Shown: positions 6,511 through 34,298, counted from the stretch's first letter. The stretch is DNA of 64,000 nt from Alphaproteobacteria bacterium (GCA_965205905.1 CBDBHZ010000012.1:7869-71868), one strand, 5' to 3'. Notes: a model not told the origin generated them from the sequence alone. Made by a program: numbers and translations.

Positions 6511-7437
6511 ATGGGCAGCGATATAGATTTACGGTTAGGGTTAGGGCGTGCCGTGCGCTCTACATTGCACACGTTGCAGAGTAATAAAGATTTAACCGAA
6601 CGCACTCAGATTCGCCTGACAACTGGCAAGAAAATCAATTCGGTGGTTGATGGCGTGATAGATTATTTCCGCAGTGAGGCGCTGATTGAGCGCTCCGATA
6701 TTTTTAAACGCAGGCGTGAAGAAGTTGGGCAGGCGGTGAGCAATCTTAAAGCCCATATCAGCGCATTGGATTCGCTAGAAGAATTTATTGACCAATTAAA
6801 AGGGCATGTTACAGCGGCGCGTGCCAAAACCGACCCCGAAGATAAGGAAGGCTTTACTGAAGCGTTTCGCGAAGTGGGGTATCAGCTTTTGTTGTTGGTG
6901 AATGATGTTGATTATAATGGGCTGAATTTGCTTGCCAGTGATAACAGTATCTTGACGGTGCGGTTTTCGGATATAGAAGAATCGCGCATTGATATTGTGG
7001 GGCAACAAGTGCTGGGCTCAAGGGTGTCGGCAGGCGGTTTGTTTAGCGAGGGCGTTTATAACCTTACCGCACCTGAATTTTTGGATAGCAATTTTGATTT
7101 AGGCTCTAGCAATTTTGCGGGGTTTTCTAACATTGATAATAGCAATATTTCGCAATCGGATGTGTTATATCAAAAATTGGAATTGGCAACAAACAGGATA
7201 GAAAATATCACCCGCAATTTGGGAAATCGCGTGGCTTTACTGCAAGGGCGTGAGCAATTTTTAACGCAATATACCACCGAATTATTGATTGGTTCTGAGA
7301 AAATTTCAACGGCTGACCTTGAAGAAGAAAGCGCAAATTCTGTGGCGCTGGAATTGAAGCATCAGATTGGGCTGACCTCTATCACCAATACCAACCGCAA
7401 TCATCAATATTTGTTGCAGATTATCAATAGCAGCTGA
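6511..7437 (+). CDS. Flagellin/FlgL-family protein (308 aa), orphan copy
   Basis: The N-terminus ..LQSNKDLTERTQIRLTTGKKINSVVDGVIDYFRSE.. and C-terminus ..ISTADLEEESANSVALELKHQIGLTSITNTNRNHQYLLQII resemble the conserved terminal helices of flagellin family proteins (alpha-type ..YW/YF.. variant). A central ..YNGLNLL.. motif is present. No other flagellar gene is in the window. Confidence 0.6.
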   Translation: MGSDIDLRLGLGRAVRSTLHTLQSNKDLTERTQIRLTTGKKINSVVDGVIDYFRSEALIERSDIFKRRREEVGQAVSNLKAHISALDSLEEFIDQLKGHVTAARAKTDPEDKEGFTEAFREVGYQLLLLVNDVDYNGLNLLASDNSILTVRFSDIEESRIDIVGQQVLGSRVSAGGLFSEGVYNLTAPEFLDSNFDLGSSNFAGFSNIDNSNISQSDVLYQKLELATNRIENITRNLGNRVALLQGREQFLTQYTTELLIGSEKISTADLEEESANSVALELKHQIGLTSITNTNRNHQYLLQIINSS

Positions 7438-9672: not shown

Positions 9673-12414
9673 TTATTTTTTTGTCTGCTTCTTCGTTGTC
9701 GTTGTTGTTTTTTTGGCAGTTGTCTTTTTCGCAGGTGCTTTTTTCTTTGCCGCTGGTTTTTTTGCAGGTGCTTTCTTAACAGGGGCTTTCACCACTATCT
9801 TTTTCGCGCCCTGTGCCAGTAATTCCAGTGCGGTTTCAAAATCGGTGCTTTGTGCATCGGCTTTGCGCCCCACCGCCGCATGTTCATCGTGATGCTGAAT
9901 GTAATAGCCATAGCGTCCGTAACGCAATAACACATCATGCCCGCTATCAGGGTGCGTGCCTAATACAACACCGCGTTTTTTCTTCAGGGTCTCACTCACC
10001 AAATCAACGGCACGGTTGATGCCAATTTCTAGCACATCATCAGATTTAAGCGAGACAAAATCATTGCCGACTTTCAAGAATGGACCAAATCGCCCGATAC
10101 CACCCGTAATCATTTCAGCCGTTTCAGGATAAATGCCAATCTCGCGTGGCAATGCCAATAATTGCACGGCTAAATCCATCGTAACATGGTTGGCATTATA
10201 GATGCGTGGCAGGGGTGCGCGTCTGGGTTTAGGGGCGACTGGTTTTTTCTTCCTGCCTTTTGTTTTTTTCTCTGGTTCTGGCGTTTCTTCTTTTTGGGCT
10301 TCAGCAGGGTCTAGCTCTGGCTCTTGTTGCAGATACAACCCGTAAGGCCCTTTACGCAGGCTGATTTCTTGCCCATTAACAGGGTGCGCGCCTAATATTT
10401 TGGGGAATATCATCTCGCCATCAGCGCCATCTTGCGCGTCTGCCTCCTCGCCTAATTGCCCGGTATAGCGGCATTCAGGATATTGGTCGCAAGCGATAAA
10501 TGCCCCGAATTTACCTGTGCGGAGCGATAAACGCCCTTCTTTGCATGATGGGCATTTGCGCTTTTCCTCACTGGTTTTATCATCAGTGGCAGCAAAATAA
10601 TGAAAAGCAAGTTTCTCATCAAGCTGTTTGCTAACATCAGCGGGTGTTACTTCTTCAACCCTATCAATCAGCTTGCCCATATCAGCCCAAAATGTGTTAA
10701 GCAGGCTTTTCCATTGCATCGCGCCATGCGAAATCTCATCAAGCTTATCTTCCAAATCAGCGGTGAAATCATACTCAACTTGCTCTGGAAAATACAGCTC
10801 TAGGAAGCTGACAATGATGCGCCCAATATCATCAGGGATAAAGCGTTTTTTATCCAGATGCACATATTTGCGATTAACCAGCACCTGCAAGATTGAGGCA
10901 TAGGTTGAGGGACGCCCGATGCCCAATTCTTCCAGTTTTTTCACCAAAGACGCATCAGAATAGCGGGGCGGGGGTTGCGTAAAATGTTGGCTTGGCGTTA
11001 CATTTTGCTTGTTTAACGCCTCATTCTCGGTAAGGGGTGGCAGTAAGCGATTCTCGTCATTTTCCTGCTGTTGGGTGTCGCCATCTTTAGTGTTGGGTTC
11101 ATCATCACGCGATTCCATGTAAAGCCGTGTAAAACCATCAAATAGCATCACCGAGCCATTGGCGCGAAAATTGATTTTTTTATCTTCATTGGCAATATCA
11201 GCCGCCACTTTTGCAAATTGAGCATTTGCCATTTGCGTGGCAAGGGCGCGCTTCCAAATCAACTCATACAGTTTGGCTTGGTCAGCATCTAGGAATTGCC
11301 GAATATCGCTAGGCGCATATTCAAAATGGGTCGGGCGAATGGCTTCATGTGCCTCTTGCGCGTTTTTCACCTTGCTTTTATAGCGGCGCGGACTATCAAG
11401 CAGATATTTCTTGCCAAATTTTTGCGAAACCAGTGAGGTGGCGTTTTGCACTGCCTCATCAGAAAGGTTCACCGAATCCGTCCGCATATAGCTAATCAGC
11501 CCGATGGTTTTGCCTTTAATATTAATGCCCTCATATAATTTTTGCGCCACCATCATGGTATGTTGTGCGCGGAAATATAATTTACGCGCCGCTTCTTGTT
11601 GCAAAGTTGAGGTGGTGAAAGGTGGGGGTGGGCTACGTTGCACATTGCTTTTTTTAATGTGAACAATGCTGTAATTCTGTGCCTCACATGCTGATGTGAT
11701 GCGGGTGGCATCTTCTTGGTTGTTGATTGAAAATTTGCCTAATTTTTCGCCATCAAAATGAGTGAGGCGGGCAGGAAACGCTATTTTTTCTTGGTTTTTT
11801 TCGGGGTTTTTCTGGAATTGCGCTTCCACCGTCCAAAATTCTTGTGGATTAAATAATTCAATCTCATTCTCGCGCTCACATACCAACCGAAGCGCCACCG
11901 ATTGCACGCGCCCTGCCGAACGGGCGGCACGCGATATTTTGCGCCATAATAAAGGTGAGATTGAGAAACCCACCAAATAATCTAAGGCACGGCGGGCAAG
12001 ATAGGCATCTACCAAATCCTGATTGATGGCACGGGCATTGGCAATCGCTTTTTGGATCGCGGTTTTGGTGATTTCGTGAAACACCACACGTTCGGTGGTT
12101 TTGTTTTTCAGCTTATCTTGCAACACAGAATGTAAATGCCATGCAATCGCTTCACCCTCGCGGTCAGGGTCGGTGGCAAGAATAAGTTTATTCGCTGATT
12201 TTAACGCGGTCTCGATTTGCTTTAGGCGCGGGGCAGCGCGTTCGCTAAGCTCCCACCGCATCGCGAAATCTTCTTCAGGCAATACCGAGCCTTTTTTAGA
12301 AGGCAAATCGCGGATATGCCCATAGCTAGCCAACACCTGATAGTCTTTACCCAAATAGCCAGCGATGGTTTTGGCTTTGGCAGGCGATTCCACAATGACA
12401 AGATTTTCAGCCAT
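9673..12414 (-). CDS. topA: DNA topoisomerase I
   Basis: 913 aa. It has the TOPRIM N-terminus MAENLVIVESPAKAKTIAGYLG..., ..SYGHIRDLP.., the active-site region ..ISYMRTDS.., a Zn-ribbon (CPSCKEGRL..) and a C-terminal AKKP-type lysine-rich tail. Confidence 0.96.
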   Translation of the reverse strand: MAENLVIVESPAKAKTIAGYLGKDYQVLASYGHIRDLPSKKGSVLPEEDFAMRWELSERAAPRLKQIETALKSANKLILATDPDREGEAIAWHLHSVLQDKLKNKTTERVVFHEITKTAIQKAIANARAINQDLVDAYLARRALDYLVGFSISPLLWRKISRAARSAGRVQSVALRLVCERENEIELFNPQEFWTVEAQFQKNPEKNQEKIAFPARLTHFDGEKLGKFSINNQEDATRITSACEAQNYSIVHIKKSNVQRSPPPPFTTSTLQQEAARKLYFRAQHTMMVAQKLYEGINIKGKTIGLISYMRTDSVNLSDEAVQNATSLVSQKFGKKYLLDSPRRYKSKVKNAQEAHEAIRPTHFEYAPSDIRQFLDADQAKLYELIWKRALATQMANAQFAKVAADIANEDKKINFRANGSVMLFDGFTRLYMESRDDEPNTKDGDTQQQENDENRLLPPLTENEALNKQNVTPSQHFTQPPPRYSDASLVKKLEELGIGRPSTYASILQVLVNRKYVHLDKKRFIPDDIGRIIVSFLELYFPEQVEYDFTADLEDKLDEISHGAMQWKSLLNTFWADMGKLIDRVEEVTPADVSKQLDEKLAFHYFAATDDKTSEEKRKCPSCKEGRLSLRTGKFGAFIACDQYPECRYTGQLGEEADAQDGADGEMIFPKILGAHPVNGQEISLRKGPYGLYLQQEPELDPAEAQKEETPEPEKKTKGRKKKPVAPKPRRAPLPRIYNANHVTMDLAVQLLALPREIGIYPETAEMITGGIGRFGPFLKVGNDFVSLKSDDVLEIGINRAVDLVSETLKKKRGVVLGTHPDSGHDVLLRYGRYGYYIQHHDEHAAVGRKADAQSTDFETALELLAQGAKKIVVKAPVKKAPAKKPAAKKKAPAKKTTAKKTTTTTKKQTKK

Positions 12415-12557
12415 AAAATTATTCCGTTAATGATACAAATAAGCCTACTCTTTACAGCAAAAGCAAGTAAAAGGCAAACATTATCATATAAAATTAAAAC
12501 CATTATGAAAATCAGGTTGAGAGTTGCTTTTTTTATGTGCATCACTATAATGCCCGA

Positions 12558-14105
12558 ATGAACATGTTAAAACAATATATCGTTAAGGGCTTTCAGTTTA
12601 TTTTTGCCCTTAATATCAGCCCATTATTATTTATGGTTTTGTTTAGTTGGGCATTCCTGCTAGATATGTTAGAGCGCAATGGGCATTTGATGCGCCCGAG
12701 TGATACGCTATTATTTTTTGCCTATGGGTGCATCATTGTATTATTGCAATATTTCATGGCTCTTAGAATCAAACCATATTGTAAACATATCAATATTTAT
12801 TATGCCGTCATCACATTATTATTTATTGTTAATCTGCTTGGTTTTTATTTGTTAAGTTACGGACGATATATACAAGCACCATTATTTGGGCAAATAGTAA
12901 CATTATTAATAGTCGGAGGGTTGTTTTACATCATTATTAAATATAGCGAGAAATGGGTGTTCTTTATCACATTATTGCTGATTTATTCATTATTTATTGC
13001 AGGCGCAGTTTCGGGCAAAACAAAACTTCTTGATAAGATAAATGCAACGCAAATTGCATTGCCAGAAAATTATACGCCGCAAAATTTTAGCAAAAAGCCG
13101 AATATTTACCTGCTCTCGTTCGATGCCATGATGCCACAGAATGTCGCGCAAAAATTGCTTAATTTGCAACCATCAGAAATACCTACATATTTTGATGTTT
13201 TGCAACAAAATGATGCTGTTATTATCCCCAATGCTTTCACATATTTACCGAAAACCTCCAGCTCATTTTCATCATTGCTTGCATTAGATATTGAATGGTA
13301 TCGCGCATTATATCAGAAATATATAAATTACGGTGCCGAAATGGTAACGGGCGCACGCTGGACACCTACCTATGATATTTTTGACCGCAATGGCTATGAT
13401 TTGCAGATGGTTTATGAGAGTGATTTTTTTATCAGCCCATTAAGGATTGAAAATAAAAAAGTAACTTACTGGTATAAAACCAAAGGTGAAGGATTTTGCA
13501 AACATATTGACCTTGCTTATTCATTATGGGGATATTGTGCGCTTAAATCTGTGTTTGTTGAAATTATCAATGCCAATAACAATATTGATAATATCTATCA
13601 TGATAGGTTGCAAGCGGCGGCACAGTCAGCAAAGCCAACATTTACATTTGCCTATACTTTTGTGCCGGGGCATACAACGGCATCGCATAATGGCAATGAT
13701 TTAGAACAGGTGGCGGAATATAAGCAGGATTTTTTACTTAATAGTATCGAAGCCGCAAAATATCTGCAAAATTATATTGATATTATTCGCGCTGATGATA
13801 AGGATGGCATTATCATCATTTTTGGTGATCATGGCGCTTGGATAACCAGAGGGATTGATGCCGATAATATCCCTGCCGATAGCCTTTATGGTAAAACAGA
13901 TATTGTGCAAGATAAGTATGGGGTGTTGCTTGCAGTGCTTGACCCACATGGGTGTAAGATTGCCGATAGGGTTGTAACCACATTGCCCGATATGATGTAT
14001 CATCTTATCACTTGCTTAACGGGTGGCAAACCAGTGCTGAAAGAACGTTATGATAGCGAGGCTGAATTTATCGACTATCTCTACGACTCTATTTCATCAC
14101 AATAG
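12558..14105 (+). CDS. Membrane enzyme, 5 TM plus alkaline-phosphatase-superfamily (sulfatase/LtaS/ENPP-like) domain, paralog 1
   Basis: ORF track starts at GTG 12537. ATG 12558 or 12564 aligns better with paralogs 3 and 4 (MW(L/Q)QK...LLDMLERNG). Five hydrophobic helices precede PNIYLLSFDAMMP (metal Asp), LPKTSSSFSSLLALD (Ser/Thr nucleophile region), VPGHT and FGDHGAW. Confidence 0.7.
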   Translation: MNMLKQYIVKGFQFIFALNISPLLFMVLFSWAFLLDMLERNGHLMRPSDTLLFFAYGCIIVLLQYFMALRIKPYCKHINIYYAVITLLFIVNLLGFYLLSYGRYIQAPLFGQIVTLLIVGGLFYIIIKYSEKWVFFITLLLIYSLFIAGAVSGKTKLLDKINATQIALPENYTPQNFSKKPNIYLLSFDAMMPQNVAQKLLNLQPSEIPTYFDVLQQNDAVIIPNAFTYLPKTSSSFSSLLALDIEWYRALYQKYINYGAEMVTGARWTPTYDIFDRNGYDLQMVYESDFFISPLRIENKKVTYWYKTKGEGFCKHIDLAYSLWGYCALKSVFVEIINANNNIDNIYHDRLQAAAQSAKPTFTFAYTFVPGHTTASHNGNDLEQVAEYKQDFLLNSIEAAKYLQNYIDIIRADDKDGIIIIFGDHGAWITRGIDADNIPADSLYGKTDIVQDKYGVLLAVLDPHGCKIADRVVTTLPDMMYHLITCLTGGKPVLKERYDSEAEFIDYLYDSISSQ

Positions 14106-14186
14106 CTTTGATTTGATGGTTGCTTTTTAAAGTTAATTATATTATACAGTTTTAGATGCGATGTTTTTTCTTAAAAGGAGTGCCAA

Positions 14187-14423
14187 ATGAAAAAGAATAA
14201 GATGAAAAATAAATATTTATTATGTTTGCCAGTATGTGTAGGATTGTTGCCATTAAACGCATACGCCTATCTTGACCCCGGCACAACGGGCATTATTCTA
14301 CAAGCATTGATTGGCGGGTTTGTGGCGACAATGGCAGTTTTATCGGTGATGCGCCATAGAATCACTACTTTTTTCAAGAATTTGTTCGGCAAAAAGCCTG
14401 ATAGCAACTCTGAAGAAAAATAA
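14187..14423 (+). CDS. Small membrane protein (78 aa), signal-like N-terminus plus YLDPGTTG motif plus TM helix
   Basis: AAGGAG lies 7 nt upstream of the ATG. The sequence has a hydrophobic N-terminus (..LLCLPVCVGLLPLNAYA), then YLDPGTTGIILQALIGGFVATMAVLSV and a basic tail. The stop is 6 nt before the methyltransferase ATG. Confidence 0.5.
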   Translation: MKKNKMKNKYLLCLPVCVGLLPLNAYAYLDPGTTGIILQALIGGFVATMAVLSVMRHRITTFFKNLFGKKPDSNSEEK

Positions 14424-14429
14424 AAATTG

Positions 14430-15830
14430 ATGGCACAAAAAGATAAAGGTTCTTTTCGCGACCCCTCTGGGCATGTGTTCACGCATCAAGGCAGAATATT
14501 AAGAAGCGTTACCAAACATGGCGCAGAAAAATATGAAGCAGTGCGCGATGCGGGTTTGCTTGATGCGCTTTACGATAAAGGGTTTATTGTTAAAACCACC
14601 GAACTTAGCGCGCAAGAACAAAAGAAGCTAGATATTGCTGATGGTGATGTAAAATATTTACTAGAGCATGAAAAAATCCCTTATATTTCGTATCCTTACG
14701 AATGGAGTTTTGAGCAATTAAAAACTGCCGCTTTGCATCATTTGGAAATGCAATTATTTTGCTTCGATAAAGGTTTCATACTAAGCGATGCCACCGCTTA
14801 TAATATCCAATTTATTGGTGCGCGCCCGGTATTTATTGATATTTTATCGTTGCGCCCTTACCAGCAGGGTGAATTTTGGCAGGGCTATCAACAATTTTCT
14901 ATGCAGTTTTTATATCCGCTGATTTTACAGGCAAAAGTTGGTATTAATTATCAGGCGCTGTATCGTGGCGGATTTGAAGGCATCAGCGCAACTGATTTAC
15001 ACGCCATGCTTTCATGGCGCGATAAATTATCATTATTGACTTATTTGCATGTTACATTGCCCGCGAAATTAGATAAAAAACGCATTAATAATCCTGATGG
15101 GGTGATGAAAAATGCCGCCAAGCAAAGACAATTAAGCGCAAATGCCTATCGCGGATTTTTGGGTGCGATGTTGCGGGCAGTATCGGGGCTTAAACCCAAA
15201 GGCAAAAACAGAACTGTGTGGAATAATTACGAGATTGAACAGACTTATGTCAGCGATGAATTGCAACAAAAGCGTGATTTCGTGGCAAAATTTGTGAAGG
15301 CTGAAAAACCCAATATGCTTTTTGATATTGGCTGTAATTTAGGCGGTTATTCGTTGTTGGCACGTGAATCGGGTGCTGAATATGTGGTTGGTTTTGATTT
15401 TGATAGTGGCGCGATTGATGTTTCGTATCAGCGCGCTTCAAAGGTTGATAATTTTCTGCCGTTATTATTTGATGCTGCCAATCCTACGCCGTCTATCGGC
15501 TGGCGCGAGACGGAACGGCAAAGCTTTAGCGGCCGTGCCAATGCTGATGCTTTGGTTGCCTTAGCGTTTGAGCATCATCTGGTGATTGCCAAAAATATCC
15601 CAATGGCTGATTTTATCGATTGGTTGCTATCGCTGGCAAAAAGCGGTGTGGTAGAATTTGTGCCAAAAAATGATGAGACTGTGCAGAAAATGCTGACCTT
15701 GCGCGAAGATATTTTTCATGATTATACCCAAGAAAATTTTGAAAAATTATTGCAGCAATCAGCAAAAATTATTGAGCAAAAAATCATATCAGCATCAGGG
15801 CGCACGCTTTATTGGTATCAACAAAAATAG
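14430..15830 (+). CDS. Class I SAM-dependent methyltransferase (about 466 aa) with N-terminal FRDPSG domain
   Basis: LFDIGCNLGGYSLLA matches SAM-binding motif I. A long N-terminal domain begins ..KGSFRDPSGHVF... ATG is at 14430; the track uses TTG 14427. Confidence 0.7.
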   Translation: MAQKDKGSFRDPSGHVFTHQGRILRSVTKHGAEKYEAVRDAGLLDALYDKGFIVKTTELSAQEQKKLDIADGDVKYLLEHEKIPYISYPYEWSFEQLKTAALHHLEMQLFCFDKGFILSDATAYNIQFIGARPVFIDILSLRPYQQGEFWQGYQQFSMQFLYPLILQAKVGINYQALYRGGFEGISATDLHAMLSWRDKLSLLTYLHVTLPAKLDKKRINNPDGVMKNAAKQRQLSANAYRGFLGAMLRAVSGLKPKGKNRTVWNNYEIEQTYVSDELQQKRDFVAKFVKAEKPNMLFDIGCNLGGYSLLARESGAEYVVGFDFDSGAIDVSYQRASKVDNFLPLLFDAANPTPSIGWRETERQSFSGRANADALVALAFEHHLVIAKNIPMADFIDWLLSLAKSGVVEFVPKNDETVQKMLTLREDIFHDYTQENFEKLLQQSAKIIEQKIISASGRTLYWYQQK

Positions 15831-15839
15831 TAGTTTAGA

Positions 15840-17402
15840 ATGAAGATGTTTAAGAAAATCCTGTTTGGTGCTTCAAAATCAGTCAATCAATTACGACCCG
15901 GTATTTTCACTGTTTTGATGAGTCTGTTCCTGTTTTTAGCCTTGCTAGAAAAGGGCGGTCAGCAATTAAATCCAAGCGAAACATGGTATATGTTTTTTTA
16001 TATTTGCGCTATTTTACTGGTGCAATTTATCATTTTAACATTTGCGCGTATCAAGAAAATCTCGGCGGTGCGCTTTGATTTATTGGCAACATTTTTCTTT
16101 ACTGCTAATTTATTTTTTATCTATTTGGCGAATTATCCTAGTTTTTTAGAAGCCAATATGTTGCTACAGCTTTTGTTGTTGGCGGGTGTCATGTTGTTTT
16201 TCTATGCGATGATTCACTATTCGCAAGGGTGGGTGTTATCACTATGGTTGGCATTGATGATTTTTACCACCGTAGAAGATATTTTTGACAAGCATAGCTA
16301 TTTGCTTGATAAAATATTGCCACCACCCTTGCATGAATTGCCATCAAATTATCAGTTTCAGGAATTCACCCATAAGCCAAATGTCTATATATTAGGTTTT
16401 GATGCCTTGCTCCCCGAAATTTTAGCGCGTGATATGATTGAATATGGTGACGAAGCTATCGGCTATATTGATGCGCTGAATGAAGTTGGTGCCAAAATTA
16501 TCCCCAATAGTTTCACCCATATCCCCTATACGATTGGCAGCTATTCATCATTATTGGCGTTGGATATTGACTGGTATAATAATATTTATGGTGGCTATTA
16601 TCGCACGGGGCGCGAGATGATTAGGGGCGTGCAACTCACGCCAACCTATGATGTGTTTCATAAAAATGGCTATGATTTGCGTCTGCTATATTATTCTGAT
16701 TATTTTAAAAGTGCGTTTAATGTTGGTGATGGCGAAAACCCCGTGCAGTATGAATTTTTTCAAGGTGGCGGTATTTGCAATCATGTTAATTCGCCCTATG
16801 CGTTCTGGGGATTTTGCTATGTTGCCTTGCATAATAATAAGCAAGAAACCCATGAATATACCAGTGAAGAAGAGTTTCATTATGGCGAGTTAGAAAAATC
16901 TGCTTATATGGCGGTGCAAACCAATACGCCAACGCTTACCGTGTTTCATACCCAGCATCCGGGACATACTTATGGTAAATATAGCGTACGCAACCGCGCC
17001 GATGTTGAGGCTTATTTTGACTATTACCGCGAGGGTGCTAGCAACGTGGCGCGCTATATCAAGGATTATGTTGGGCTTATCCGCAAACATGACCCCGATG
17101 GTATTATTGTGATGATCAGCGACCATGGCACTTTTTTAACCAAAGGCATTGATGCTGATAATATCCCTGCTGATAGCCGCTATGATGCCAAAGATATTTT
17201 TAACGATTATCATGCGGTAACCATTGCCACGCTTGACCCGCTGGGGTGCCAAATTGCAGGCGACATTGTAACCACATTGCCCGATATGGTGAATAATCTC
17301 ATTACCTGTTTAACGGGTGGCAAATCAGTGCTGAAAAAGCGATATGATAGCGAAACTGAATTTATTGATTATCTCTACGACCCTTTAATTATCGGCAATT
17401 AA
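15840..17402 (+). CDS. Membrane enzyme, 5 TM plus alkaline-phosphatase-superfamily domain, paralog 2 (most divergent)
   Basis: Same architecture as paralog 1. Motifs are PNVYILGFDALLP, IPYTIGSYSSLLALD, HPGHT, ISDHGTF and the shared C-terminal block IVTTLPDMVNNLITCLTGGKSVLKKRYDSETEFIDYLYD. Confidence 0.7.
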   Translation: MKMFKKILFGASKSVNQLRPGIFTVLMSLFLFLALLEKGGQQLNPSETWYMFFYICAILLVQFIILTFARIKKISAVRFDLLATFFFTANLFFIYLANYPSFLEANMLLQLLLLAGVMLFFYAMIHYSQGWVLSLWLALMIFTTVEDIFDKHSYLLDKILPPPLHELPSNYQFQEFTHKPNVYILGFDALLPEILARDMIEYGDEAIGYIDALNEVGAKIIPNSFTHIPYTIGSYSSLLALDIDWYNNIYGGYYRTGREMIRGVQLTPTYDVFHKNGYDLRLLYYSDYFKSAFNVGDGENPVQYEFFQGGGICNHVNSPYAFWGFCYVALHNNKQETHEYTSEEEFHYGELEKSAYMAVQTNTPTLTVFHTQHPGHTYGKYSVRNRADVEAYFDYYREGASNVARYIKDYVGLIRKHDPDGIIVMISDHGTFLTKGIDADNIPADSRYDAKDIFNDYHAVTIATLDPLGCQIAGDIVTTLPDMVNNLITCLTGGKSVLKKRYDSETEFIDYLYDPLIIGN

Positions 17403-17403
17403 C

Positions 17404-18957
17404 ATGTGGCTACAAAAATTGAGATGCGTTTTCAAACCATTACTCAACATTAGCGTGTTACTATTTACAATGCTGTTTAGTGGCGCGTTTTTACTAGATA
17501 TGTTGGAACGTAATGGGCAATTTATGACTCCGAGTGATATGGTCTTATTATTTCTTTATGGCAGTATTATCTTATTATTGCAATATTTTATTGCCCTTAA
17601 AATTAAACCATATTGTAAACATATCAATTTTTATTACGGTCTTATCACATTATTTTTTATCGCCAATGTGCTTGGCTTTTACTTATTAAGTTACGGGCGA
17701 TATATACAATCATCATTGTTTGGACAGTTCATAACCATGCTGATCATTGGCGGGGTGTTTTACATCATTATCAAATATAGTGAGAAATGGGTGTTTTTTA
17801 TCACATTATTGGTGGTTTATTCATTGTTTATTGCAGGCGCAACATCAGGTAAAACAAAAATTCTTGATAAAATAAATGTAAAACAGATTGAATTGCCCTC
17901 AAATTATATACCGCAAAGTTTTATCAAAAAACCTAATATCTATCTGCTTTCGTTCGATTCCATGATGCCCTATAATATAGCGCAAAAATTTCTTAATTTA
18001 CAGCCATCAGAAATGCCTGAATATTTTAATATCTTGCAACAAAATGAAGCTGTTATCATCCCTAATGCTTTTTCATATTTACCAAGAACTCATGGTGCGT
18101 TCTCATCATTGCTCGCGTTGGATATTGAATGGTATAATACAATATATGGCGCGCAAGAAAGCTATGGTGGCGAAATGATAACGGGTGCGCGCTGGACACC
18201 TGCCTATGATATTTTTGACCGCAATGGTTATGATTTGCAGATGGTTTATGAAAGTGATTTCTTTCGTAGTCCCTTGCGAAATGGAAGCAAAAAAGTAACT
18301 TATTGGTATAAAACCAGTGGAGAAGGGTTTTGCAAACATATCGATATTGCTTACTCATTATGGGGCTATTGTGCCATCAAATCTGTGTTTGTTAAATATA
18401 ATAATGCGAATAATAAGATTGATAATATCTATTATGATAGGTTGCAAGCGGCCGCACAATCAGCAAAGCCAACATTCACGCTTGCTTATACGTATCACCC
18501 AGGGCATACGGCACTCTCGCATAATGGCAATGATTTAGAACAAGTGGCGAAATATAAGAATAAGTTTATGAGGCGGAGTAAGGTTGCCGCACAATATTTG
18601 CAAAATTATATTGATATTATTCGCGCTGATGATAAGGATGGTATCATCATTATTTTTGCCGACCATGGCGCTTGGGTAACCAGAGGCATTGATGTTGATA
18701 ATATACCAGCCGATAGCCGTTATAGCAAAGCAGATATTATCCAAGATAGATATGGTGTGCTGATGGCAGTGCTTAACCCACATGCCTCTACGCCAGATAA
18801 TTGCCAAATTGCTGGCAAAATTGTTACCACATTGCCTGATATGATGCATAATCTTATCACCTGCCTAACGGGTGGCAAGCCAGTATTAGAGACGCAATAT
18901 AATAGCGAAACCGATTTTATTGATTACCTTTACAGTCCGTTAATTGTTGGAAAATAG
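17404..18957 (+). CDS. Membrane enzyme, 5 TM plus alkaline-phosphatase-superfamily domain, paralog 3
   Basis: The ATG is 1 nt after the preceding stop. It is closely similar to paralog 1 along its whole length, with PNIYLLSFDSMMP, LPRTHGAFSSLLALD, HPGHT and FADHGAW. Confidence 0.7.
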   Translation: MWLQKLRCVFKPLLNISVLLFTMLFSGAFLLDMLERNGQFMTPSDMVLLFLYGSIILLLQYFIALKIKPYCKHINFYYGLITLFFIANVLGFYLLSYGRYIQSSLFGQFITMLIIGGVFYIIIKYSEKWVFFITLLVVYSLFIAGATSGKTKILDKINVKQIELPSNYIPQSFIKKPNIYLLSFDSMMPYNIAQKFLNLQPSEMPEYFNILQQNEAVIIPNAFSYLPRTHGAFSSLLALDIEWYNTIYGAQESYGGEMITGARWTPAYDIFDRNGYDLQMVYESDFFRSPLRNGSKKVTYWYKTSGEGFCKHIDIAYSLWGYCAIKSVFVKYNNANNKIDNIYYDRLQAAAQSAKPTFTLAYTYHPGHTALSHNGNDLEQVAKYKNKFMRRSKVAAQYLQNYIDIIRADDKDGIIIIFADHGAWVTRGIDVDNIPADSRYSKADIIQDRYGVLMAVLNPHASTPDNCQIAGKIVTTLPDMMHNLITCLTGGKPVLETQYNSETDFIDYLYSPLIVGK

Positions 18958-18959
18958 AA

Positions 18960-20552
18960 ATGTGGCAACAAAAATCATTCAGAGTTTTCAAAGCATTATT
19001 CAACATTAACCCGTTACTATTTGCCATGCTGTTTAGCGGTGCGTTTTTGCTGGATATGCTGGAACGTAATGGGCGGCTGATTTCGCCTCACGATATGCTA
19101 TTGCTCTTTATTTATGGGTGTTTAATTCTGTTGTTACAATATTTCATTGTTAAAAAAATCATTCCATATTTCAGGCATATTAATATTTATTACGGGCTTA
19201 TCACATTATTATTTATCTCTAATTTGCTTGGCTTTTATTTGCTAAATTATGGGCGCTATATCCAAGCCTCACTCTTTGGGCAGTTCATAACATTATCAAT
19301 AGTCGGGGTTTTGTTTTATCTTATTGTAAAATATAGTGAAAAATGGGTGTTCTTTATCACATTATTGTTGGCTTATTCATTGTTTGTTTCAAGCGCAACA
19401 TCGGGCACGACCAGAATTCTTGATAATATAATCGGGAAAAAACAAGCTGAAATTAAGGCAGTTGAAACCCCCGATGATGAGGCTGATATAATAGGTGACA
19501 CGCAATTTGTAACTTTGCCAGAAAATTATATAGCGCAGGATTTTATCAAAAAGCCAAATATTTATTTGCTTTCATTTGATGCGATGATTCCAGAAAATAT
19601 TGCTCAAAAATTATTGGAACTAAGCCCGAAAGAAATGCCAAAATATTTAGATGTTTTACAAAGAAATAAGATGCAAATTATTCCTCATTCATTTGCATAT
19701 CGGCATGGCACAATCAGTTCGTTTGCGTCAATGTTGGCATTAGATACTGATTGGTATAGCAAAATACATGGTGATGTTAAGTCGCCAGCTGCTGATATGG
19801 TAACTGGCGCACAATGGACGCCTACCTATGATATTTTTGACCAAAACGGCTATGATTTGCAACTGGTTTATAGAAGCGATTATTTTAGTAGCCCACAAGG
19901 TGATGGTAATAAAGTCACTTATTGGTATAAAACTGTCGGTGAGGGATTTTGCGCGCATCTTGATAATCATTATTCATTATGGGGATATTGTGCGCTAAAA
20001 TATTTTTTTGTTAATATTATCAATGCGGATAATGATATTGGCAATATCTATCATGATAGGCTGCAAGCGGCCGCACAATCAGCAAAGCCAACATTCACAC
20101 TTGCCTATACATTTCTTCCGGGCCATACAAGCGCATCGCATAATGGCAATGATTTAAAGGATTTAAGTCGCTACAAGCATCAGTTTTTAAATGCGAGTGT
20201 GCGCGTAGAAATCTGGTTGCAACGTTATATTAACATTATTCGTAAATATGATAAGGATGGCATTATCATTGTTTTTGGTGATCATGGCGCGCATATTACA
20301 CGAGGGGCAGATAATATTGGCGCAAACAGTAGATATAGTAAAGCAGATATTATCCAAGATAGGCATGGGGTGCTACTTGCCACGCTTGACCCGCATGGGT
20401 GTAAGATTGCTGAGCCTGTTGTAACCACATTGCCCGATATGATGCATAATCTTATCACCTGCTTAACGGGTGGTAAGCCAGTGCTGAAACAGCAATATAA
20501 CAATGCGGCTGAATTTGCTGATTATCTCGATGACTCTGTTTCAGCGAAATAA
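18960..20552 (+). CDS. Membrane enzyme, 5 TM plus alkaline-phosphatase-superfamily domain, paralog 4
   Basis: The ATG is 2 nt after the preceding stop. Motifs are PNIYLLSFDAMIP, GTISSFASMLALD, LPGHT and FGDHGAH. An extra acidic insert (..AEIKAVETPDDEADIIGD..) sits between the TM region and the catalytic domain. Confidence 0.7.
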   Translation: MWQQKSFRVFKALFNINPLLFAMLFSGAFLLDMLERNGRLISPHDMLLLFIYGCLILLLQYFIVKKIIPYFRHINIYYGLITLLFISNLLGFYLLNYGRYIQASLFGQFITLSIVGVLFYLIVKYSEKWVFFITLLLAYSLFVSSATSGTTRILDNIIGKKQAEIKAVETPDDEADIIGDTQFVTLPENYIAQDFIKKPNIYLLSFDAMIPENIAQKLLELSPKEMPKYLDVLQRNKMQIIPHSFAYRHGTISSFASMLALDTDWYSKIHGDVKSPAADMVTGAQWTPTYDIFDQNGYDLQLVYRSDYFSSPQGDGNKVTYWYKTVGEGFCAHLDNHYSLWGYCALKYFFVNIINADNDIGNIYHDRLQAAAQSAKPTFTLAYTFLPGHTSASHNGNDLKDLSRYKHQFLNASVRVEIWLQRYINIIRKYDKDGIIIVFGDHGAHITRGADNIGANSRYSKADIIQDRHGVLLATLDPHGCKIAEPVVTTLPDMMHNLITCLTGGKPVLKQQYNNAAEFADYLDDSVSAK

Positions 20553-20575
20553 AATATAAGCACTCATCACTTATA

Positions 20576-20604
20576 TTGACATTATATCAGATTAGAATTA
20601 TGTT
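20576..20604 (+). promoter_or_regulatory. Candidate sigma70 promoter, TTGACA-N17-TATGTT
   Basis: TTGACA (20576-20581), a 17-nt spacer and TATGTT (20599-20604) lie 30 nt upstream of GTG 20635. Confidence 0.4.
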
Positions 20605-20634
20605 ATCCTCATCGTAACATTTAAGGAGAGAATA

Positions 20635-22032
20635 GTGAAAATTATCCTCAAAAAGAAACATATCATCTGGCTGATGATTTTATTATTGACAATTTTATTT
20701 TATTTTGCAGCACAATCCACAGTTAAAACTCCTGCATTGAAAGATAGGCGGATTATTGCTGAAGGCAATGCCGACTTTGCCAGAAAGATTGAAGTATTTA
20801 TCAAAGAAAAAATATTTTATTTCCATAATAAAGAATTAACGGATGTGGCATTATTTCGTGAGAAAAATGGCGGTGCTCAAGCCCCTTTATATATGAGCAG
20901 TCAGCAAAATATCACCGCTAATAATGTGAAAAGCGATAAGATGAAAGTTAATGAACAATCATATCAGGTGAATTATTATAATATTGACTATATTCATCAT
21001 CAGCCACGAGGCTTTGTTGACCATGATGAGAATAATTTATTTTTGATGCATGGTGATGGCTTCCTTGCTTATGTGCCACTAAGTGATTTAACAGCTGATG
21101 GCTTTACACTCACCACCATTCCAACCAATATGCAACAATTTAGAGATAAAGAAGATTGGGTTTTTGATATATTGATTCATGATGAAAAAATATATCAAAC
21201 AAACTCATTCTCTCTATCGGAAGGTTGCTATGGTTTTAGGGTGTTAATGGGTGATGTTAATTTAGAAAAAATCACTTTTAAAGAAATTTTTTCTACAAAA
21301 GAATGTGATGATAGCAGAGATTATACGTCGCCTTACGGTGAGGGCGGTAAAATGGTGGCTTATAAGGATGGCAAAATTTTATTATCAAGGGGCAATATGA
21401 CAGGCGACCCCCAAACAGATGATAATATTGGCAGTAAAATTATTATTTTAGATATTGAGAATGGCAGCTACGAGATTATTTCTAAAGGCCACCGTAATGT
21501 GCAAGGTATCGCGTATGATAGCGAGAAAGATTTACTGTGGTCAACCGAGCATGGGCCGCAAGGTGGCGATGAGCTTAATCTTAATATGGCTATTGGTGGT
21601 GAAATAGAAAATTATGGCTGGCCAGTTGCTTCCTATGGCTGGCCCTATCATCTTGACCCAGACGGTGACGAGCCTAACATATATAAGCAACCCCATGATG
21701 CTTATGGTTTTATAGAACCCTTTATGATGTTCTCGCCCGGCATTGGCATTTGCAATATTATTAAAGTGCCAGCCAGTTTTAATGGGGTGAGTGAGCAGTT
21801 ATTTATAACAGGGCTAACGGGCAGTGATGCATCGCATCGTTCGGGTAGAAGAGGGGTAACGCATCTTATTTTAGATGATGCCAATAATGTGATTGCCCGT
21901 GATGCGTTCAATTTGGGTGGTAGAATCCGCGATATAAACTATAGTGCAACCAACAATCAACTATCAGCATTTTTAGAATATGGCGCAAACCGCCATATCA
22001 AGCAAACCATTATCACGATTAGCCCTGAATAA
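20635..22032 (+). CDS. Membrane-anchored PQQ-dependent sugar (glucose/sorbosone) dehydrogenase-like beta-propeller
   Basis: GTG start with AAGGAG 6 nt upstream and an N-terminal TM helix (IIWLMILLLTILFYFAA). Motifs GHRNVQGIAYD, TEHGPQGGDELN and NYGWP are typical of the soluble PQQ sugar-dehydrogenase fold. Confidence 0.65.
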   Translation: MKIILKKKHIIWLMILLLTILFYFAAQSTVKTPALKDRRIIAEGNADFARKIEVFIKEKIFYFHNKELTDVALFREKNGGAQAPLYMSSQQNITANNVKSDKMKVNEQSYQVNYYNIDYIHHQPRGFVDHDENNLFLMHGDGFLAYVPLSDLTADGFTLTTIPTNMQQFRDKEDWVFDILIHDEKIYQTNSFSLSEGCYGFRVLMGDVNLEKITFKEIFSTKECDDSRDYTSPYGEGGKMVAYKDGKILLSRGNMTGDPQTDDNIGSKIIILDIENGSYEIISKGHRNVQGIAYDSEKDLLWSTEHGPQGGDELNLNMAIGGEIENYGWPVASYGWPYHLDPDGDEPNIYKQPHDAYGFIEPFMMFSPGIGICNIIKVPASFNGVSEQLFITGLTGSDASHRSGRRGVTHLILDDANNVIARDAFNLGGRIRDINYSATNNQLSAFLEYGANRHIKQTIITISPE

Positions 22033-22046
22033 AAACCCAAATCATT

Positions 22047-22077
22047 ATCGGATGCGCCACTAGCGTATCCGATTTTT
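22047..22077 (+). terminator. Possible terminator hairpin overlapping the 3' end of convergent acs
   Basis: ATCGGAT (22047-22053) pairs with ATCCGAT (22067-22073) and is followed by TTTTT. The loop is long (13 nt), so the structure is weak. Confidence 0.35.
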
Positions 22078-24003
22078 AATCAAATCATCTACCACTGAAG
22101 GGTCGGCAAGGGTTGAAATATCGCCCAAACTATCCAACTCATCACAGGCGATTTTGCGTAAAATACGGCGCATAATCTTGCCCGAACGGGTTTTCGGTAA
22201 TCCCGGCGCCCATTGCAATTTTTCAGGCTTGGCAATTTTACCGATATGGTTTGCCACCCAATCCACCAATTCCTGCTTCATCGCATCGCTTGGCTCAAAT
22301 CCATCATCATGCATCAGGGTAACAAAGGCGTAAATGCCGCTGCCTTTCACATCATGCGGATAGCCGACCACTGCCGCCTCTGCCACAGCCTCATGCAATA
22401 CCAACGCGCTTTCAATCTCAGCCGTGCCTAAGCGATGCCCCGAAACATTGATAATATCATCCATGCGTCCCGTAATCCAATAATAGCCGTCTTTATCGCG
22501 CCTTGCACCATCACCGCTAAAATAATAGCCCGGATATTGCACGAAATAAGTATCAATAAACCGCTGATGGTCGCCATAAACCGAACGCATCTGACCGGGC
22601 CAGCTATGCAACACACATAGCGCACCTTCGCCTTCGCCCTCGATAACATTCTGCTTCTCATCAACCAATACAGGTTGAATGCCAAAAAATGGCTTGGTTG
22701 CTGAACCCGGTTTTAAGTCGGTGGCACAGGGTAATGGCGTGATTAAGAAACCGCCAGTTTCGGTCTGCCACCATGTATCAATAATTGGGCATTTTTTCTT
22801 GCCAACATTTTCATAATACCAACGCCATGCTTCGGGGTTAATCGGCTCGCCTACCGTGCCTAACACGCGTAAAGAATCGCGGTCGGTGCGGGCAAGAAAA
22901 CCATCACCCTCTGCCATTAAAGCGCGAATTGCAGTGGGTGCAGTGTAGAAAATTGTTACCTGATGCTTATCGCAAATTTGCCAGAAACGGCTATAATCGG
23001 GATAGTTCGGCACGCCCTCAAACATCAAAGTTGTTGCGCCATTGGCAAGCGGTCCATACACAATATAGCTATGCCCTGTAATCCAGCCAACATCGGCAGT
23101 GCACCAGTAAATATCGCCATCTTGATAATCGAACGCATATTGATGAGTCATCGACGCATAAGTGAGATAGCCGCCCGATGTATGCAACACGCCTTTCGGC
23201 TTACCCGTAGAACCAGAGGTGTAGAGAATAAATAAAGGGTCTTCGGCGTTCATTTCGGCAGGCGGGCATTCATCTTCCACCGTATCATATAAATCGTGAT
23301 ACCACACATCGCGCCCTGATTGCATGTTAATAGAAGCACCTGAATTTTTGACCACCAATGTTTTTTTGATAGTGTGCGCTTGCTTCAAAGCCTCATCAAC
23401 CGTTTTTTTCAATGGCACTGTCTTACCGCCACGAATGGATTCATCGGCAGTAATCACAAAATCAGAGTCGCAATCATCAATGCGCCCAGCAAGTGCAGTC
23501 GCCGAAAACCCACCAAATACGACTGAATGCACTGCGCCAATTCTGGCACAGGCAAGCATAGCATAAGCGGCTTCGGGAATCATCGGCATGTAAAGCGTTA
23601 CGCGGTCGCCACGTTTTACCCCGATATTTTTCAACACATTGCCGAATTTATTCACCTCGTGATATAGCTCTAAATAGGTGATATGGCGTGATTTTGTTGG
23701 GTCATCACCCTCCCAGATGATAGCGGTCTGCCCCGCGCGATTTTTCACATGGCGGTCAACGCAATTATAACAGACATTCAACACGCCATCATGGTACCAG
23801 CGCACGCCAAGATTATTTTTATCGTAATTGCAATCCATCACCGCATCACTGCTGTAACGGCGAATCCAGTCTAGCCTATCGCCTTGCTTATCCCAAAAAC
23901 CTGCGGGGTCTTCAATGGAATGTTGATACATTTGTTGGTAGGTTTCGGCATCACATGATGTGCGTCCATCTTTGCGTTGCACGGGATAAAATTCTTCTAG
24001 CAT
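22060..24003 (-). CDS. acs: Acetyl-CoA synthetase
   Basis: 647 aa with the AMP-binding motif [11 protein letters not shown] and a typical Acs N-terminus (..[19 protein letters not shown]..) and C-terminus (..[17 protein letters not shown]..). Confidence 0.96.
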
Positions 24004-24094: not shown

Positions 24095-24871
24095 TCAGCA
24101 GTCAAACAGCATACCGAATTTTTGAGGGGAAGTTTTGATATTTGCCAGACGCAACATGTGCCACGCCATCACCTGATTGCTAGAAAGCACGGGCTTGTTT
24201 AGAATGGCTTCGGCTTCGGCAATGATTTTCAACACGCGCAGACTGGTGCATGAGACAAACACCGCATCAACCGCATCATCTTTGCCGATTTGCAAAATCG
24301 CTTGTAAGATACTGGCAGGCGTGATACGCGCCACCAGCGAATCTTTGGCTTGGTAAAAACTATGCACGCTTGTGGTGGAAAATCCTGCATCTTGTAGATT
24401 TTCTTGCATAGCAAGCGTTACATCGGGCGGGTAGGGCGTTAGCAACGCGATATTTTTGATACTCAATGCCGATAACGCAGCCTTGCAAGCCGTGATTGGA
24501 TTGGTGGCACGGGCTTTGGGGTGATGGGTTTGAATGATTTTTTCTATTTTTTCCTCGCCAATCATGGTCGCGCCCGACGTGCAGGCATAGCCCACCACAT
24601 CATAGTTGAAATCCTGATTCAGCAATGCGGCGGATATCGGCATTTGCTGTTCCATTGATTTTAGGTTTTCGGGCGTTACATCATCAAAATTGGCAATCCG
24701 CGAATGATAAAGCGCAATCGCACCAGTAGTGAAACCCGCTTCATCATCAAGCGATTGCAAGATGGTAGAAAACTCATGCTCGATGGTTTGGTCGCTTTGC
24801 AACACAATCAAGCCCATTTTGGCTAATGTGCCGTAACCCTCATCAAATTCGCATGGCATTTTGTTTTGCAT
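24095..24871 (-). CDS. Asp/Glu/hydantoin-racemase-superfamily protein (maleate isomerase / arylmalonate decarboxylase-like)
   Basis: 258 aa with two Cys-containing half-site motifs, YACTSGAT and FVSCTSLR, as in maleate cis-trans isomerase-type enzymes. It is the last gene of the minus-strand pyrimidine operon. Confidence 0.65.
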   Translation of the reverse strand: MQNKMPCEFDEGYGTLAKMGLIVLQSDQTIEHEFSTILQSLDDEAGFTTGAIALYHSRIANFDDVTPENLKSMEQQMPISAALLNQDFNYDVVGYACTSGATMIGEEKIEKIIQTHHPKARATNPITACKAALSALSIKNIALLTPYPPDVTLAMQENLQDAGFSTTSVHSFYQAKDSLVARITPASILQAILQIGKDDAVDAVFVSCTSLRVLKIIAEAEAILNKPVLSSNQVMAWHMLRLANIKTSPQKFGMLFDC

Positions 24872-24875
24872 TACA

Positions 24876-26378: not shown

Positions 26379-26399
26379 GTTACTTCCTTAATATACGTT

Positions 26400-27863: not shown

Positions 27864-27865
27864 CT

Positions 27866-34269: not shown

Positions 34270-34298
34270 TTTTATCAACACGATAGAATAAAAATCAA

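Follow-up and report, generated by a model that had tools for sequence, protein, structure and literature searches.

A stretch of 64,000 nucleotides (nt) from an Alphaproteobacteria bacterium (GCA_965205905.1 CBDBHZ010000012.1:7869-71868; hereafter the window, with positions counted from its start) carries, between topA and acs, a group of genes that is very probably a noeA/noeB-type cassette with paralogs of the alkaline phosphatase (AP) fold. The reading we favor overall, with moderate confidence, is that this cassette was inherited vertically, that its NoeB component was amplified to four diverged copies, and that its role is phospho-group decoration. The underlying three-gene unit, composed of a small membrane peptide, NoeA, and an AP-fold membrane protein, is already known; the features that are new here are its tandem expansion, a NoeB subfamily that has diverged, and the addition of a propeller protein.

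Gene content of the topA-acs interval

As a preliminary description of the window had reported, seven genes lie on one strand between topA (9673 to 12414, minus strand) and acs (22060 to 24003, minus strand), which form the left and right flanks of the cassette. These seven plus-strand open reading frames (ORFs) fill the interval and account for every long ORF called in it. The first, par1 (12558 to 14105, with an alternative GTG start at 12537), encodes a NoeB-like protein with five transmembrane (TM) helices and a predicted outward-facing AP/sulfatase-fold domain. It is followed by the gene for a membrane peptide of 78 amino acids (14187 to 14423), recognized by its ORF, a conserved motif, and its ratio of nonsynonymous to synonymous substitution rates (dN/dS), and by a noeA homolog (14427 to 15830), recognized by homology and encoding a proposed kinase-like N-terminal domain joined to an S-adenosylmethionine (SAM)-dependent methyltransferase. 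Three more NoeB-like genes come next: par2 (15840 to 17402), identified by paralogy; par3 (17404 to 18957), the copy whose structure was predicted with AlphaFold2 (AF2); and par4 (18960 to 20552), in which alignment revealed an insertion of about 22 amino acids after the fifth TM helix. The last gene (20635 to 22032) encodes a membrane-anchored propeller of the GSDH/YliI type, assigned through PF07995.

Spacing between these genes is tight, with 3 nt between the peptide gene and noeA, 9 nt between noeA and par2, and, as first described, 1 nt between par2 and par3 and 2 nt between par3 and par4. A gap of 81 to 82 nt precedes the peptide gene, and one of the same size precedes the propeller gene. 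Values of dN/dS were 0.09 to 0.23 across all genes, the peptide gene included, indicating purifying selection.

The noeA homolog and the three-gene unit

The link to noeA and noeB comes through the methyltransferase, which is 44.1% identical to NoeA of Sinorhizobium meliloti (pSymA) over residues 8 to 466, or 98% of the length (E = 2e-121). A NoeA profile found a single gene in the 64 kb. On pSymA, the gene order is nodL, a 71-amino-acid ORF, noeA, and noeB, where the 71-amino-acid ORF is homologous to the window peptide and NoeB matches PF00884 (E = 2e-10). The genes noeA and noeB have been known as host-range nodulation genes of the S. meliloti nod-box n5 operon since 1995 (Ardourel et al. 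1995). That operon and the window share a small YLDPGTG ORF, a full-length NoeA, and a sulfatase/AP-fold membrane protein, in the same order. Unlike the operon, the window cassette is chromosomal, has no nodL-like ORF between topA and acs (a nod box was not searched for), and contains four NoeB-type genes (one of them upstream of the peptide gene) rather than one, together with the propeller gene; in addition, its NoeB-type proteins are too diverged for significant pairwise similarity to NoeB.

Beyond the window, the triad of peptide, NoeA, and sulfatase-fold membrane protein recurred in nine further loci ranging from Alphaproteobacteria to Flavobacteria (L013, L014, L015, L016, L019, L020, L021, L007, and L024), in addition to the related loci L001, L002, and L017 from metagenome-assembled genomes (MAGs). 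Every NoeA locus examined had it, with hosts comprising Microvirga, Aureimonas, Novosphingobium, three metagenomic contigs, Aestuariivivens marinum, and the source of L024. In the cultured flavobacterium A. marinum, NoeA was 31% identical and the AP protein matched PF00884 at 3e-9. The peptide gene lay upstream of noeA and the AP-fold gene downstream, the position that par2 occupies in the window. In total, NoeA homologs formed at least 3895 sequence clusters, with about 50% identity in Hyphomicrobiales.

A 2022 survey described the same unit as Lani_1193, Lani_1194, and Lani_1195 in Legionella anisa and about 1200 other species, with two NoeA neighbors conserved in 65% (the peptide) and 38% of 816 neighborhoods (PMC9758233). 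That unit is likewise made up of a small hypothetical protein, an atypical kinase joined to a class I methyltransferase, and an AP-fold membrane protein resembling EptA, YejM, and MCR-1, and the window is placed in its family via NoeA rather than by comparison with Lani_1194. Unlike the proposals made here, the survey proposes roles as Legionella effectors and does not describe a tandem AP-fold expansion (PMC9758233). The statement in the preliminary description that no characterized system has this gene combination is therefore wrong, since the noeA/noeB cassette, including Lani_1193 to Lani_1195, is that combination; it holds only in the sense that the cassette has no known biochemical function.

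Glycan genes surround homologous cassettes (GT2, GtrA, phosphomannomutase, and epimerase genes). Other neighbors include polysaccharide export and GDP-mannose genes, Wzm with Wzt_C, and Wzx with DegT. From these neighborhoods, a role in envelope or glycan decoration, as envisaged when the locus was first described, is plausible.

The AF2 model of the NoeA homolog (predicted local distance difference test [pLDDT], 88.4) bore out the initial assignment as a SAM methyltransferase. Foldseek matched it to hundreds of class I methyltransferases, including WbdD (4azs/4azt; E = 3e-7), MePCE, and BCDIN3D, and the top 50 matches of the full model all aligned to the methyltransferase domain. The methyltransferase signature is invariant in NoeA (D300-x-G-C-N-x-G and D324/D326), and Pfam methyltransferase matches were subthreshold only. 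No TM segment and no C-terminal coiled coil are present in the protein. In the N-terminal domain, R26, D121-x4-N126, and D138 are invariant, with a spacing like that of D166/N171/D184 in protein kinase A. This domain had been noted earlier for its FRDPSG sequence, without the published proposal that the NoeA family combines an atypical kinase with a class I methyltransferase, a pairing also found in WbdD (PMC9758233). A kinase-like character for the domain is therefore proposed, based on that publication and on the invariant R/D-x4-N/D pattern.

The small membrane peptide

The third member of the unit, noted in the preliminary description as a 78-amino-acid membrane peptide, proved to be a real, conserved gene. 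In its product, a signal-like hydrophobic segment is combined with an AYA-YLDPGTTG motif, a single TM helix, and a C-terminal tail that is basic, as is the other end of the protein; the gene is preceded by a Shine-Dalgarno sequence (AAGGAG) and has a dN/dS of 0.11 to 0.18. ORFs with an AxAYLDPGxG motif lie upstream of NoeA homologs in 11 loci, pSymA included, and in 8 loci the peptide stop codon and the noeA start codon overlap or are no more than 3 nt apart. The family comprises at least 7668 clusters of 66 to 107 amino acids and has no Pfam model. In proteobacterial members, the signal-like segment ends in AxA and is followed directly by Y-x-D-P-G, one TM helix, and a basic tail, and a flavobacterial member begins at the motif itself (MYFLYFDPGLG). 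This architecture fits a mature single-span protein with its N terminus outside and its C terminus inside. Within the motif, only Y and D are invariant, and the Thr position holds Ala, Ser, or Leu at some loci.

Of the partners in the unit, the peptide is the most constant, being present even where another kinase may replace NoeA. In the Flavobacteriales MAG contig JBLIMQ010000037.1 (L006, 9062 to 17954, plus strand), an AP-fold relative of 586 amino acids and a YLDPGSGS peptide of 76 amino acids occur with no NoeA. The next five genes there encode a 996-amino-acid protein with PPDK_N and PEP-utilizers domains, a Peptidase_C26 amidotransferase, an NTP_transf_3 nucleotidyltransferase, a TagF-like Glyphos_transf protein, and a YidC-like protein. 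By domain makeup, this set presumably resembles the Campylobacter jejuni Cj1418/1417/1416 phosphoramidate pathway, and by this analogy a different kinase may fill the NoeA slot in L006.

Genes for insertases of the YidC/60KD_IMP type were seen inside two cassettes, L024 (3345 to 7554, plus strand), with the order peptide, NoeA, YidC-like protein of 226 amino acids, and AP-fold member, and L006 (16776 to 17954, plus strand). Their presence fits a small membrane peptide with an outward N terminus.

The prominence of the peptide raises the alternative that the module modifies protein, with NoeA phosphorylating or methylating the cytoplasmic tail of the peptide or the AP-fold enzymes adding a phospho-form to the periplasmic Y-x-D-P-G motif or to other proteins. 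AP-fold transferases with protein acceptors do exist, as with PptA on pilin and EptC on FlgG. Both the neighborhood and the cluster counts rank the peptide first among the partners in breadth of conservation, it is translationally coupled to NoeA, its invariant Tyr and Asp lie at the predicted periplasmic face, and the JGI annotation of NoeA homologs is that of PrmA-like protein methyltransferases. We nevertheless regard a protein target as very unlikely, because polysaccharide genes dominate the neighborhoods, because conservation of the motif is confined to two residues, and because there is no reason for as many as 7 transferases to serve one 78-amino-acid peptide.

Four NoeB-like paralogs of predicted alkaline phosphatase fold

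That four of the genes are paralogs, as first described, was confirmed by protein identities to par1 of 40% (par2), 75% (par3), and 68% (par4) and by a family hidden Markov model (HMM) that found exactly four copies in the 64 kb (par1, E = 1.3e-153). DNA identity among them is only 61 to 85%, which marks the paralogs as old duplicates and rules out recent gene conversion. The par1 gene is a duplicate of the par3 type located upstream of the peptide gene. The par2 protein is the most divergent of the four (about 40% identity to the others), yet it belongs to the most conserved ortholog group, being 84 to 86% identical to its counterparts L017_d520 and L001_a515 with a dN/dS of 0.13. The par4 protein is 81% identical to L017_f534 and retains the catalytic set described below.

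Hydropathy plots showed five peaks in the first 150 residues of each paralog, with a basic N terminus and a basic loop between helices 2 and 3. This distribution of charge places the N terminus inside and the C-terminal domain outside the cytoplasm. The AF2 model of par3, built on 18 relatives, reached a pLDDT of 85 and a predicted template modeling score of 0.83 and consists of helices at residues 18 to 147 followed by an alpha/beta domain. Foldseek matches with a probability of 1.0 were PbgA (6xlp; 4.3e-9), MCR-1 (9nww; 3e-8), LtaP (4uop; 1.1e-7), EptA (5fgn; 1.6e-7), and EptC (6a82; 1.9e-7), with many sulfatases ranking after them. Further PbgA/YejM structures were also matched (6v8q and 6vat). 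Template modeling scores (TM-scores) ranged from 0.32 to 0.54 on the target, with 11 to 15% identity in the structural alignments; for EptA, MCR-1, and EptC, they were 0.40 to 0.42 on the query and 0.51 to 0.52 on the target.

The paralogs contain the motifs SFDAMMP, T..SSLLALD, PGHT, and GDHG. In an alignment of 14 copies, namely the four window paralogs and 10 from three relatives, D185, H368, D420, and H421 (par3 numbering) were invariant, and T229 was present in 13 of 14, with Ser in L017_c515. Of three conserved cysteines in the outer domain, Cys310 and Cys323 were found in all 14, and Cys467 was found in 13, being missing from the truncated L002_b428. In the par3 model, D185 lies at the end of a strand, T229 lies at the N terminus of a helix, and H368 and D420-H421 lie at strand ends. 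This D/T/H/DH set, a putative active site, is predicted to coincide with the positions of the metal ligands and the Thr nucleophile in the AP fold. The region around the nucleophile reads P(K/R/Y)T(S/H/I)(S/G)(S/A)(F/Y)SSLLALD. A formylglycine sulfatase was ruled out, as there is no C/S-x-P-x-R motif and the nucleophile column holds Thr or Ser.

Relatives with 25 to 32% identity carry PF00884 at or slightly below threshold. A word-indexed search returned 19 relatives of the paralogs, and an exhaustive search with the par3 family profile returned 2469 cluster representatives with an E value of at most 1e-3 and 321 with an E value of at most 1e-30, mostly of about 500 amino acids. All ten representatives that were looked up were metagenomic and unnamed or labeled "hypothetical." A 140-member HMM of the paralog family scored 43 bits against the protein in the NoeB position in Novosphingobium, across the TM region and on into the catalytic domain, and 24.7 bits against NoeB itself, in three collinear pieces that include the T and GDHG motifs. 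On contig L023 (641 to 5037, plus strand), two tandem family members (524 and 516 amino acids) directly follow a GH3 glycosidase gene, and neither NoeA nor the peptide is encoded in the 1.7 kb of contig sequence upstream.

The initial assignment of a five-TM, AP-superfamily architecture therefore stands on the predicted structure and remote profiles, and it failed to gain a direct Pfam match. Since direct family searches gave nothing significant, the AP-fold claim depends on structure prediction and transitive profiles.

Results weighing against the preferred reading

Several results count against a noeA/noeB-type cassette devoted to phospho-group decoration. Against Pfam Sulfatase (PF00884), par3 and par4 scored 13.2 to 13.3 bits (cutoff, 25; E = 0.05), and par1 and par2 had no match. 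No match was found in NCBIfam for the four paralogs or among PDB sequences with the paralog family profile; the Pfam BcsG match was also subthreshold (E = 0.24). Directly compared with NoeB, par3 gave no significant BLASTP alignment (E = 1.2), and hhalign aligned 66 columns at 58% probability, in the GDHG region only. PbgA/YejM, the top Foldseek match, is generally seen as a nonenzymatic regulator that binds lipopolysaccharide (LPS). For the proposed kinase, a profile of the NoeA N-terminal domain had no match in Pfam or PDB sequences, and hhalign gave a probability of 0.2% against an APH(3')-IIa sequence that is 100% identical to plasmid copies. The source organism is a MAG of an uncultured alphaproteobacterium. 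In the literature consulted, no substrate or product is reported for any NoeA or NoeB, and for a nodL mutant with polar effects on noeA and noeB, the only change described in the Nod factors is loss of the O-acetyl group.

Could the paralogs be sensors or regulators of lipid or LPS, noncatalytic like PbgA/YejM? The rank of PbgA/YejM in the structural search (6xlp at E = 4.3e-9, with 6v8q and 6vat) points in this direction. The D/T(S)/H/DH set, by contrast, is complete in every one of the 14 copies, which come from four genomes and are under purifying selection, the structural matches to EptA, MCR-1, and EptC have TM-scores that are equal or higher, and expansion to at least seven copies is hard to square with a regulator, leaving this alternative only a very slight chance.

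A second alternative keeps catalysis but assigns it to hydrolysis, in that the paralogs would serve as phosphodiesterases, phosphatases, or sulfatases in lipid remodeling or in the scavenging of phosphate or sulfate, with the NoeA link regulatory or coincidental. We consider this quite unlikely, although many AP-superfamily members hydrolyze, the Foldseek list is rich in sulfatases, the neighboring periplasmic sugar dehydrogenase-like protein could suit catabolism, and the relative on L023 stands beside a GH3 glycosidase with no NoeA in the sequence available. A five-TM N-terminal domain is typical of the lipid-donor transferases EptA, LtaS, OpgB, and BcsG, and the best full-length structural matches are five-TM proteins of this lipid-donor transferase type. 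The nucleophile column with Thr or Ser and no formylglycine motif also speaks against hydrolases, as does the tight and often translationally coupled linkage to NoeA and the peptide across phyla, in neighborhoods that are biosynthetic glycan loci.

Age of the locus and number of paralogs

Cassette guanine-plus-cytosine (GC) content is 37.7% versus 44.5% in the remaining window (topA, 46.9%; acs, 47.6%), making it the lowest-GC 9.6-kb stretch within the window. Per-gene values are 36 to 41% versus 45 ± 2.3% elsewhere in the window, and GC content at third codon positions (GC3) is 0.36 versus 0.42 ± 0.044. The low GC content noted earlier is thus a real contrast, of about half the size suggested by the original spot counts. 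Values at the first and second codon positions are also low, and part of the drop is therefore an effect of amino acid composition.

The cassette occupies the same place in relatives. In L001 and L002 it is likewise flanked by topA and acs, and it adjoins acs in L017, whose sequence begins inside the cassette so that the topA side is unseen. Divergence of NoeA follows that of TopA: identities in L001 are 90% for TopA and 89% for NoeA, and identities in L002 are 78% for TopA, 81% for Acs, and 73% for NoeA. Because synteny is shared with relatives and NoeA divergence tracks TopA, recent horizontal transfer, raised as a possibility in the preliminary description, is rejected. GC depression occurs in the related MAGs as well, indicating that the locus has long had this composition. 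Apart from the paralogs, no direct repeats were found in or around the cassette, the called ORFs leave no space for an integrase or insertion sequence (IS) element in the topA-acs interval, and no tRNA or transfer-messenger RNA gene was found anywhere in the 64-kb window. The cassette is best read as chromosomal and vertically inherited rather than as a recent island.

These data leave it highly improbable that the locus is a recently acquired AT-rich island encoding an uncharacterized combinatorial envelope decoration system without known relatives. Such an island would agree with the GC minimum, with cassette relatives elsewhere that are carried on plasmids or lie beside IS elements or integrases, and with GC contents below the flanks in four of seven unrelated cassettes. 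It is at odds with the shared topA-acs site (on the acs side only in L017), the matching NoeA and TopA divergence, the parallel GC depression in relatives with its amino acid component, the lack of tRNA genes and of direct repeats beyond the paralogs, and a gene combination that is the known noeA/noeB unit.

Vertical inheritance has been accompanied by changes in copy number, with two paralogs in L001, two in L002, four in the window, and at least seven in L017. L001 contains the peptide gene, noeA, and two paralogs, and L002 contains a paralog, the peptide gene, noeA, and a second paralog. The ORF of this second L002 copy (9953 to 11489, plus strand) ends at 11239 after 428 amino acids, with tblastn homology running on to 11489, and from this sequence it looks like a frameshifted pseudogene or an assembly error. 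In the closest relative, L017 (1 to 11605, plus strand), three of the NoeB-like paralogs are upstream and four are downstream of the peptide gene; three paralog types there (545, 521, and 515 amino acids) have no window counterpart. A neighbor-joining tree resolved three ortholog groups, a par2 type, a par3 type that includes par1, and a par4 type, among which the par2 type evolves slowly (84 to 89% identity).

The propeller and signals around the genes

The assignment of the final gene to the pyrroloquinoline quinone/GSDH-type propellers was upheld by a match to PF07995 (GSDH; E = 7.5e-26, 91.6 bits with a cutoff of 25) that covers residues 237 to 436 and profile positions 116 to 313 of 332. 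PDB sequence matches were 7cdy and 2g8s. Like YliI/Asd of Escherichia coli and soluble pyrroloquinoline quinone sugar dehydrogenases, with 28% identity to YliI, the protein conserves the GHRNxQG, EHGPxGGDE, NYGWP, K, and RIRD columns of the pyrroloquinoline quinone/Ca type; unlike them, it has an N-terminal membrane anchor, consisting of one hydrophobic segment, and about 100 extra residues. At the His column of the YliI HFGGR motif, the window protein has Tyr and the L017 protein has His, beside a five-residue insertion. This His is among the residues that we take to be catalytic in YliI and GSDH proteins.

The propeller gene has its own Shine-Dalgarno sequence. It follows the cassette in the window, L017, and L018, whereas L001 and L002 lack it. 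No propeller relatives turned up in a search of species-representative genomes, and linkage was judged from L017, L018, L001, and L002. Two of the three related loci lack the gene, so the case for counting it in the functional unit is weak, and it is treated here as a lineage-specific neighbor rather than as part of the cassette core.

As for a separate promoter, suggested earlier for this gene, the 82-nt gap before it does contain a sigma-70-like site (TTGACA-17-TATGTT, 20576 to 20604, plus strand), a match to consensus only. Such sites are common, with 63 found versus 43.5 expected, and AT-rich DNA makes the scan uninformative. A terminator-like hairpin of 11 pairs (6 GC) followed by a run of T (22047 to 22073, plus strand) lies in the 27 nt separating the convergently transcribed propeller and acs genes; it reaches into the acs stop region and is possibly a bidirectional terminator. 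Scanning the gaps against Rfam gave no riboswitch or small RNA match. Phase variation was ruled out, as no homopolymer of 8 or more nucleotides and no simple-sequence repeats were present.

A proposed pathway and its relation to known systems

If the preferred reading of a noeA/noeB-type cassette is right, the NoeB-like proteins would be Thr-nucleophile phosphotransferases at the outer face of the inner membrane, taking a phospho-headgroup from a membrane lipid donor in the manner of EptA, LtaS, OpgB, and BcsG and passing it to periplasmic or surface glycans or lipids. NoeA, at the cytoplasmic face, may phosphorylate and methylate the donor or a lipid-linked acceptor, with a logic like that of the methyl-phosphate cap made by WbdD. 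The peptide could be a single-span tether, N terminus out and C terminus in, linking NoeA to the membrane enzymes much as BcsF links BcsE to BcsG, and the GSDH-type propeller would be a peripheral, lineage-specific periplasmic sugar oxidoreductase. The occurrence of one NoeA and one peptide for 2 to at least 7 paralogs suggests one donor chemistry with several acceptor specificities. This particular assignment of donor and acceptors is tentative, and we hold it as a possibility rather than an expectation.

A more specific version is offered as a long shot. In it, the triad would be an unrecognized trans-membrane pathway that puts a methylated, methyl-phosphate-like phospho-group on glycans of the periplasm or cell surface. 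A methylated phospho-lipid donor would be made by NoeA at the inner leaflet and coupled across the membrane by the peptide, NoeB-type Thr phosphotransferases would deliver the group, and tandem copies (2, 4, or at least 7, with the putative catalytic set intact) would diversify the acceptors and thereby the surface chemistry, with a phosphoramidate-type kinase pathway replacing NoeA in some Flavobacteria.

Known systems offer partial parallels. EptA/MCR-1, EptC, LtaS/LtaP, OpgB, and BcsG share with the paralogs a five-TM N-terminal domain, an extracytoplasmic domain of (in the paralogs, predicted) sulfatase fold, and, putatively, the Thr nucleophile and Asp/His metal set; they differ in that the window paralogs fall below the PF00884 threshold, with structural alignments at 11 to 15% identity, and in that the known enzymes are not known to have a NoeA-type or YLDPGTG-peptide partner. 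In E. coli, too, several AP-fold paralogs draw on a single lipid donor to modify different acceptors. The small peptide BcsF tethers cytoplasmic BcsE to BcsG, a membrane-anchored AP-fold phosphoethanolamine transferase. This BcsE-BcsF-BcsG group belongs to the cellulose system of E. coli (PMC8892547). As in the window, a cytoplasmic protein, a single-span peptide, and a membrane AP-fold enzyme are encoded together, but the parallel is one of analogy only: BcsE is not homologous to NoeA, nor is BcsF to the peptide, and the BcsG similarity is the subthreshold match given above.

WbdD of E. coli O9a is a bifunctional kinase/methyltransferase that adds a methyl-phosphate cap to the O antigen (PMC3482155). 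Both WbdD and NoeA combine a kinase-like domain (proposed for NoeA) with a class I SAM methyltransferase domain, are cytoplasmic, and are encoded in glycan loci, and one NoeA cassette adjoins Wzm/Wzt_C. In NoeA, however, the domain order is reversed (kinase-like and then methyltransferase), there is no coiled coil, and the kinase part shows no sequence similarity; WbdD, for its part, is not known to have an AP-fold or peptide partner. In the O-methyl phosphoramidate system of C. jejuni, one donor pathway (Cj1415 to Cj1418) serves paralogous transferases (Cj1421 and Cj1422) that act on different acceptor sugars with a methylated phospho-group. Unlike the paralogs, those transferases have another fold, and the window has neither phase-variable tracts nor phosphoramidate genes.

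Other genes in the window

Beyond acs, the regions at 24095 to 32594 (minus strand) and 33259 to 36102 (plus strand) look like a gene set for reductive pyrimidine catabolism, with a PreT/PreA-like pair (Fer4_20 plus Pyr_redox_2, and DHO_dh plus 4Fe-4S), an amidohydrolase, an M20 peptidase, a 500-amino-acid ORF, and an Amdase-like protein, adjoined by a PnrA-type ABC transporter. On the other side of topA, an ORF of 1645 amino acids (1377 to 6317, minus strand) has an unusually high GC content at second codon positions (0.52), and its only Pfam match is a TbpB-type beta-barrel domain (residues 558 to 676). Genes for a protein with a flagellin N-terminal domain (6511 to 7437, plus strand) and for a methyl-accepting chemotaxis protein (38259 to 40481, plus strand) indicate that the organism is probably motile and free-living. 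In L017, an ankyrin-repeat protein is encoded 3 kb past acs.

Implications for envelope biology

The three-gene unit is found in thousands of genomes (at least 3895 NoeA clusters and at least 7668 peptide clusters), and no component of it has an assigned reaction. A large NoeB-like subfamily of about 500 amino acids, with 321 cluster representatives at an E value of at most 1e-30, is missed by current domain libraries. Copy number can rise for the AP-fold component alone, with NoeA and the peptide kept as single copies, a pattern that favors a common chemistry directed at several targets. If the proposed mechanism is true, the unit would establish a new class of modification for the envelope or for secreted glycans, with a bearing on symbiosis, Legionella biology, and surface antigenic variation.

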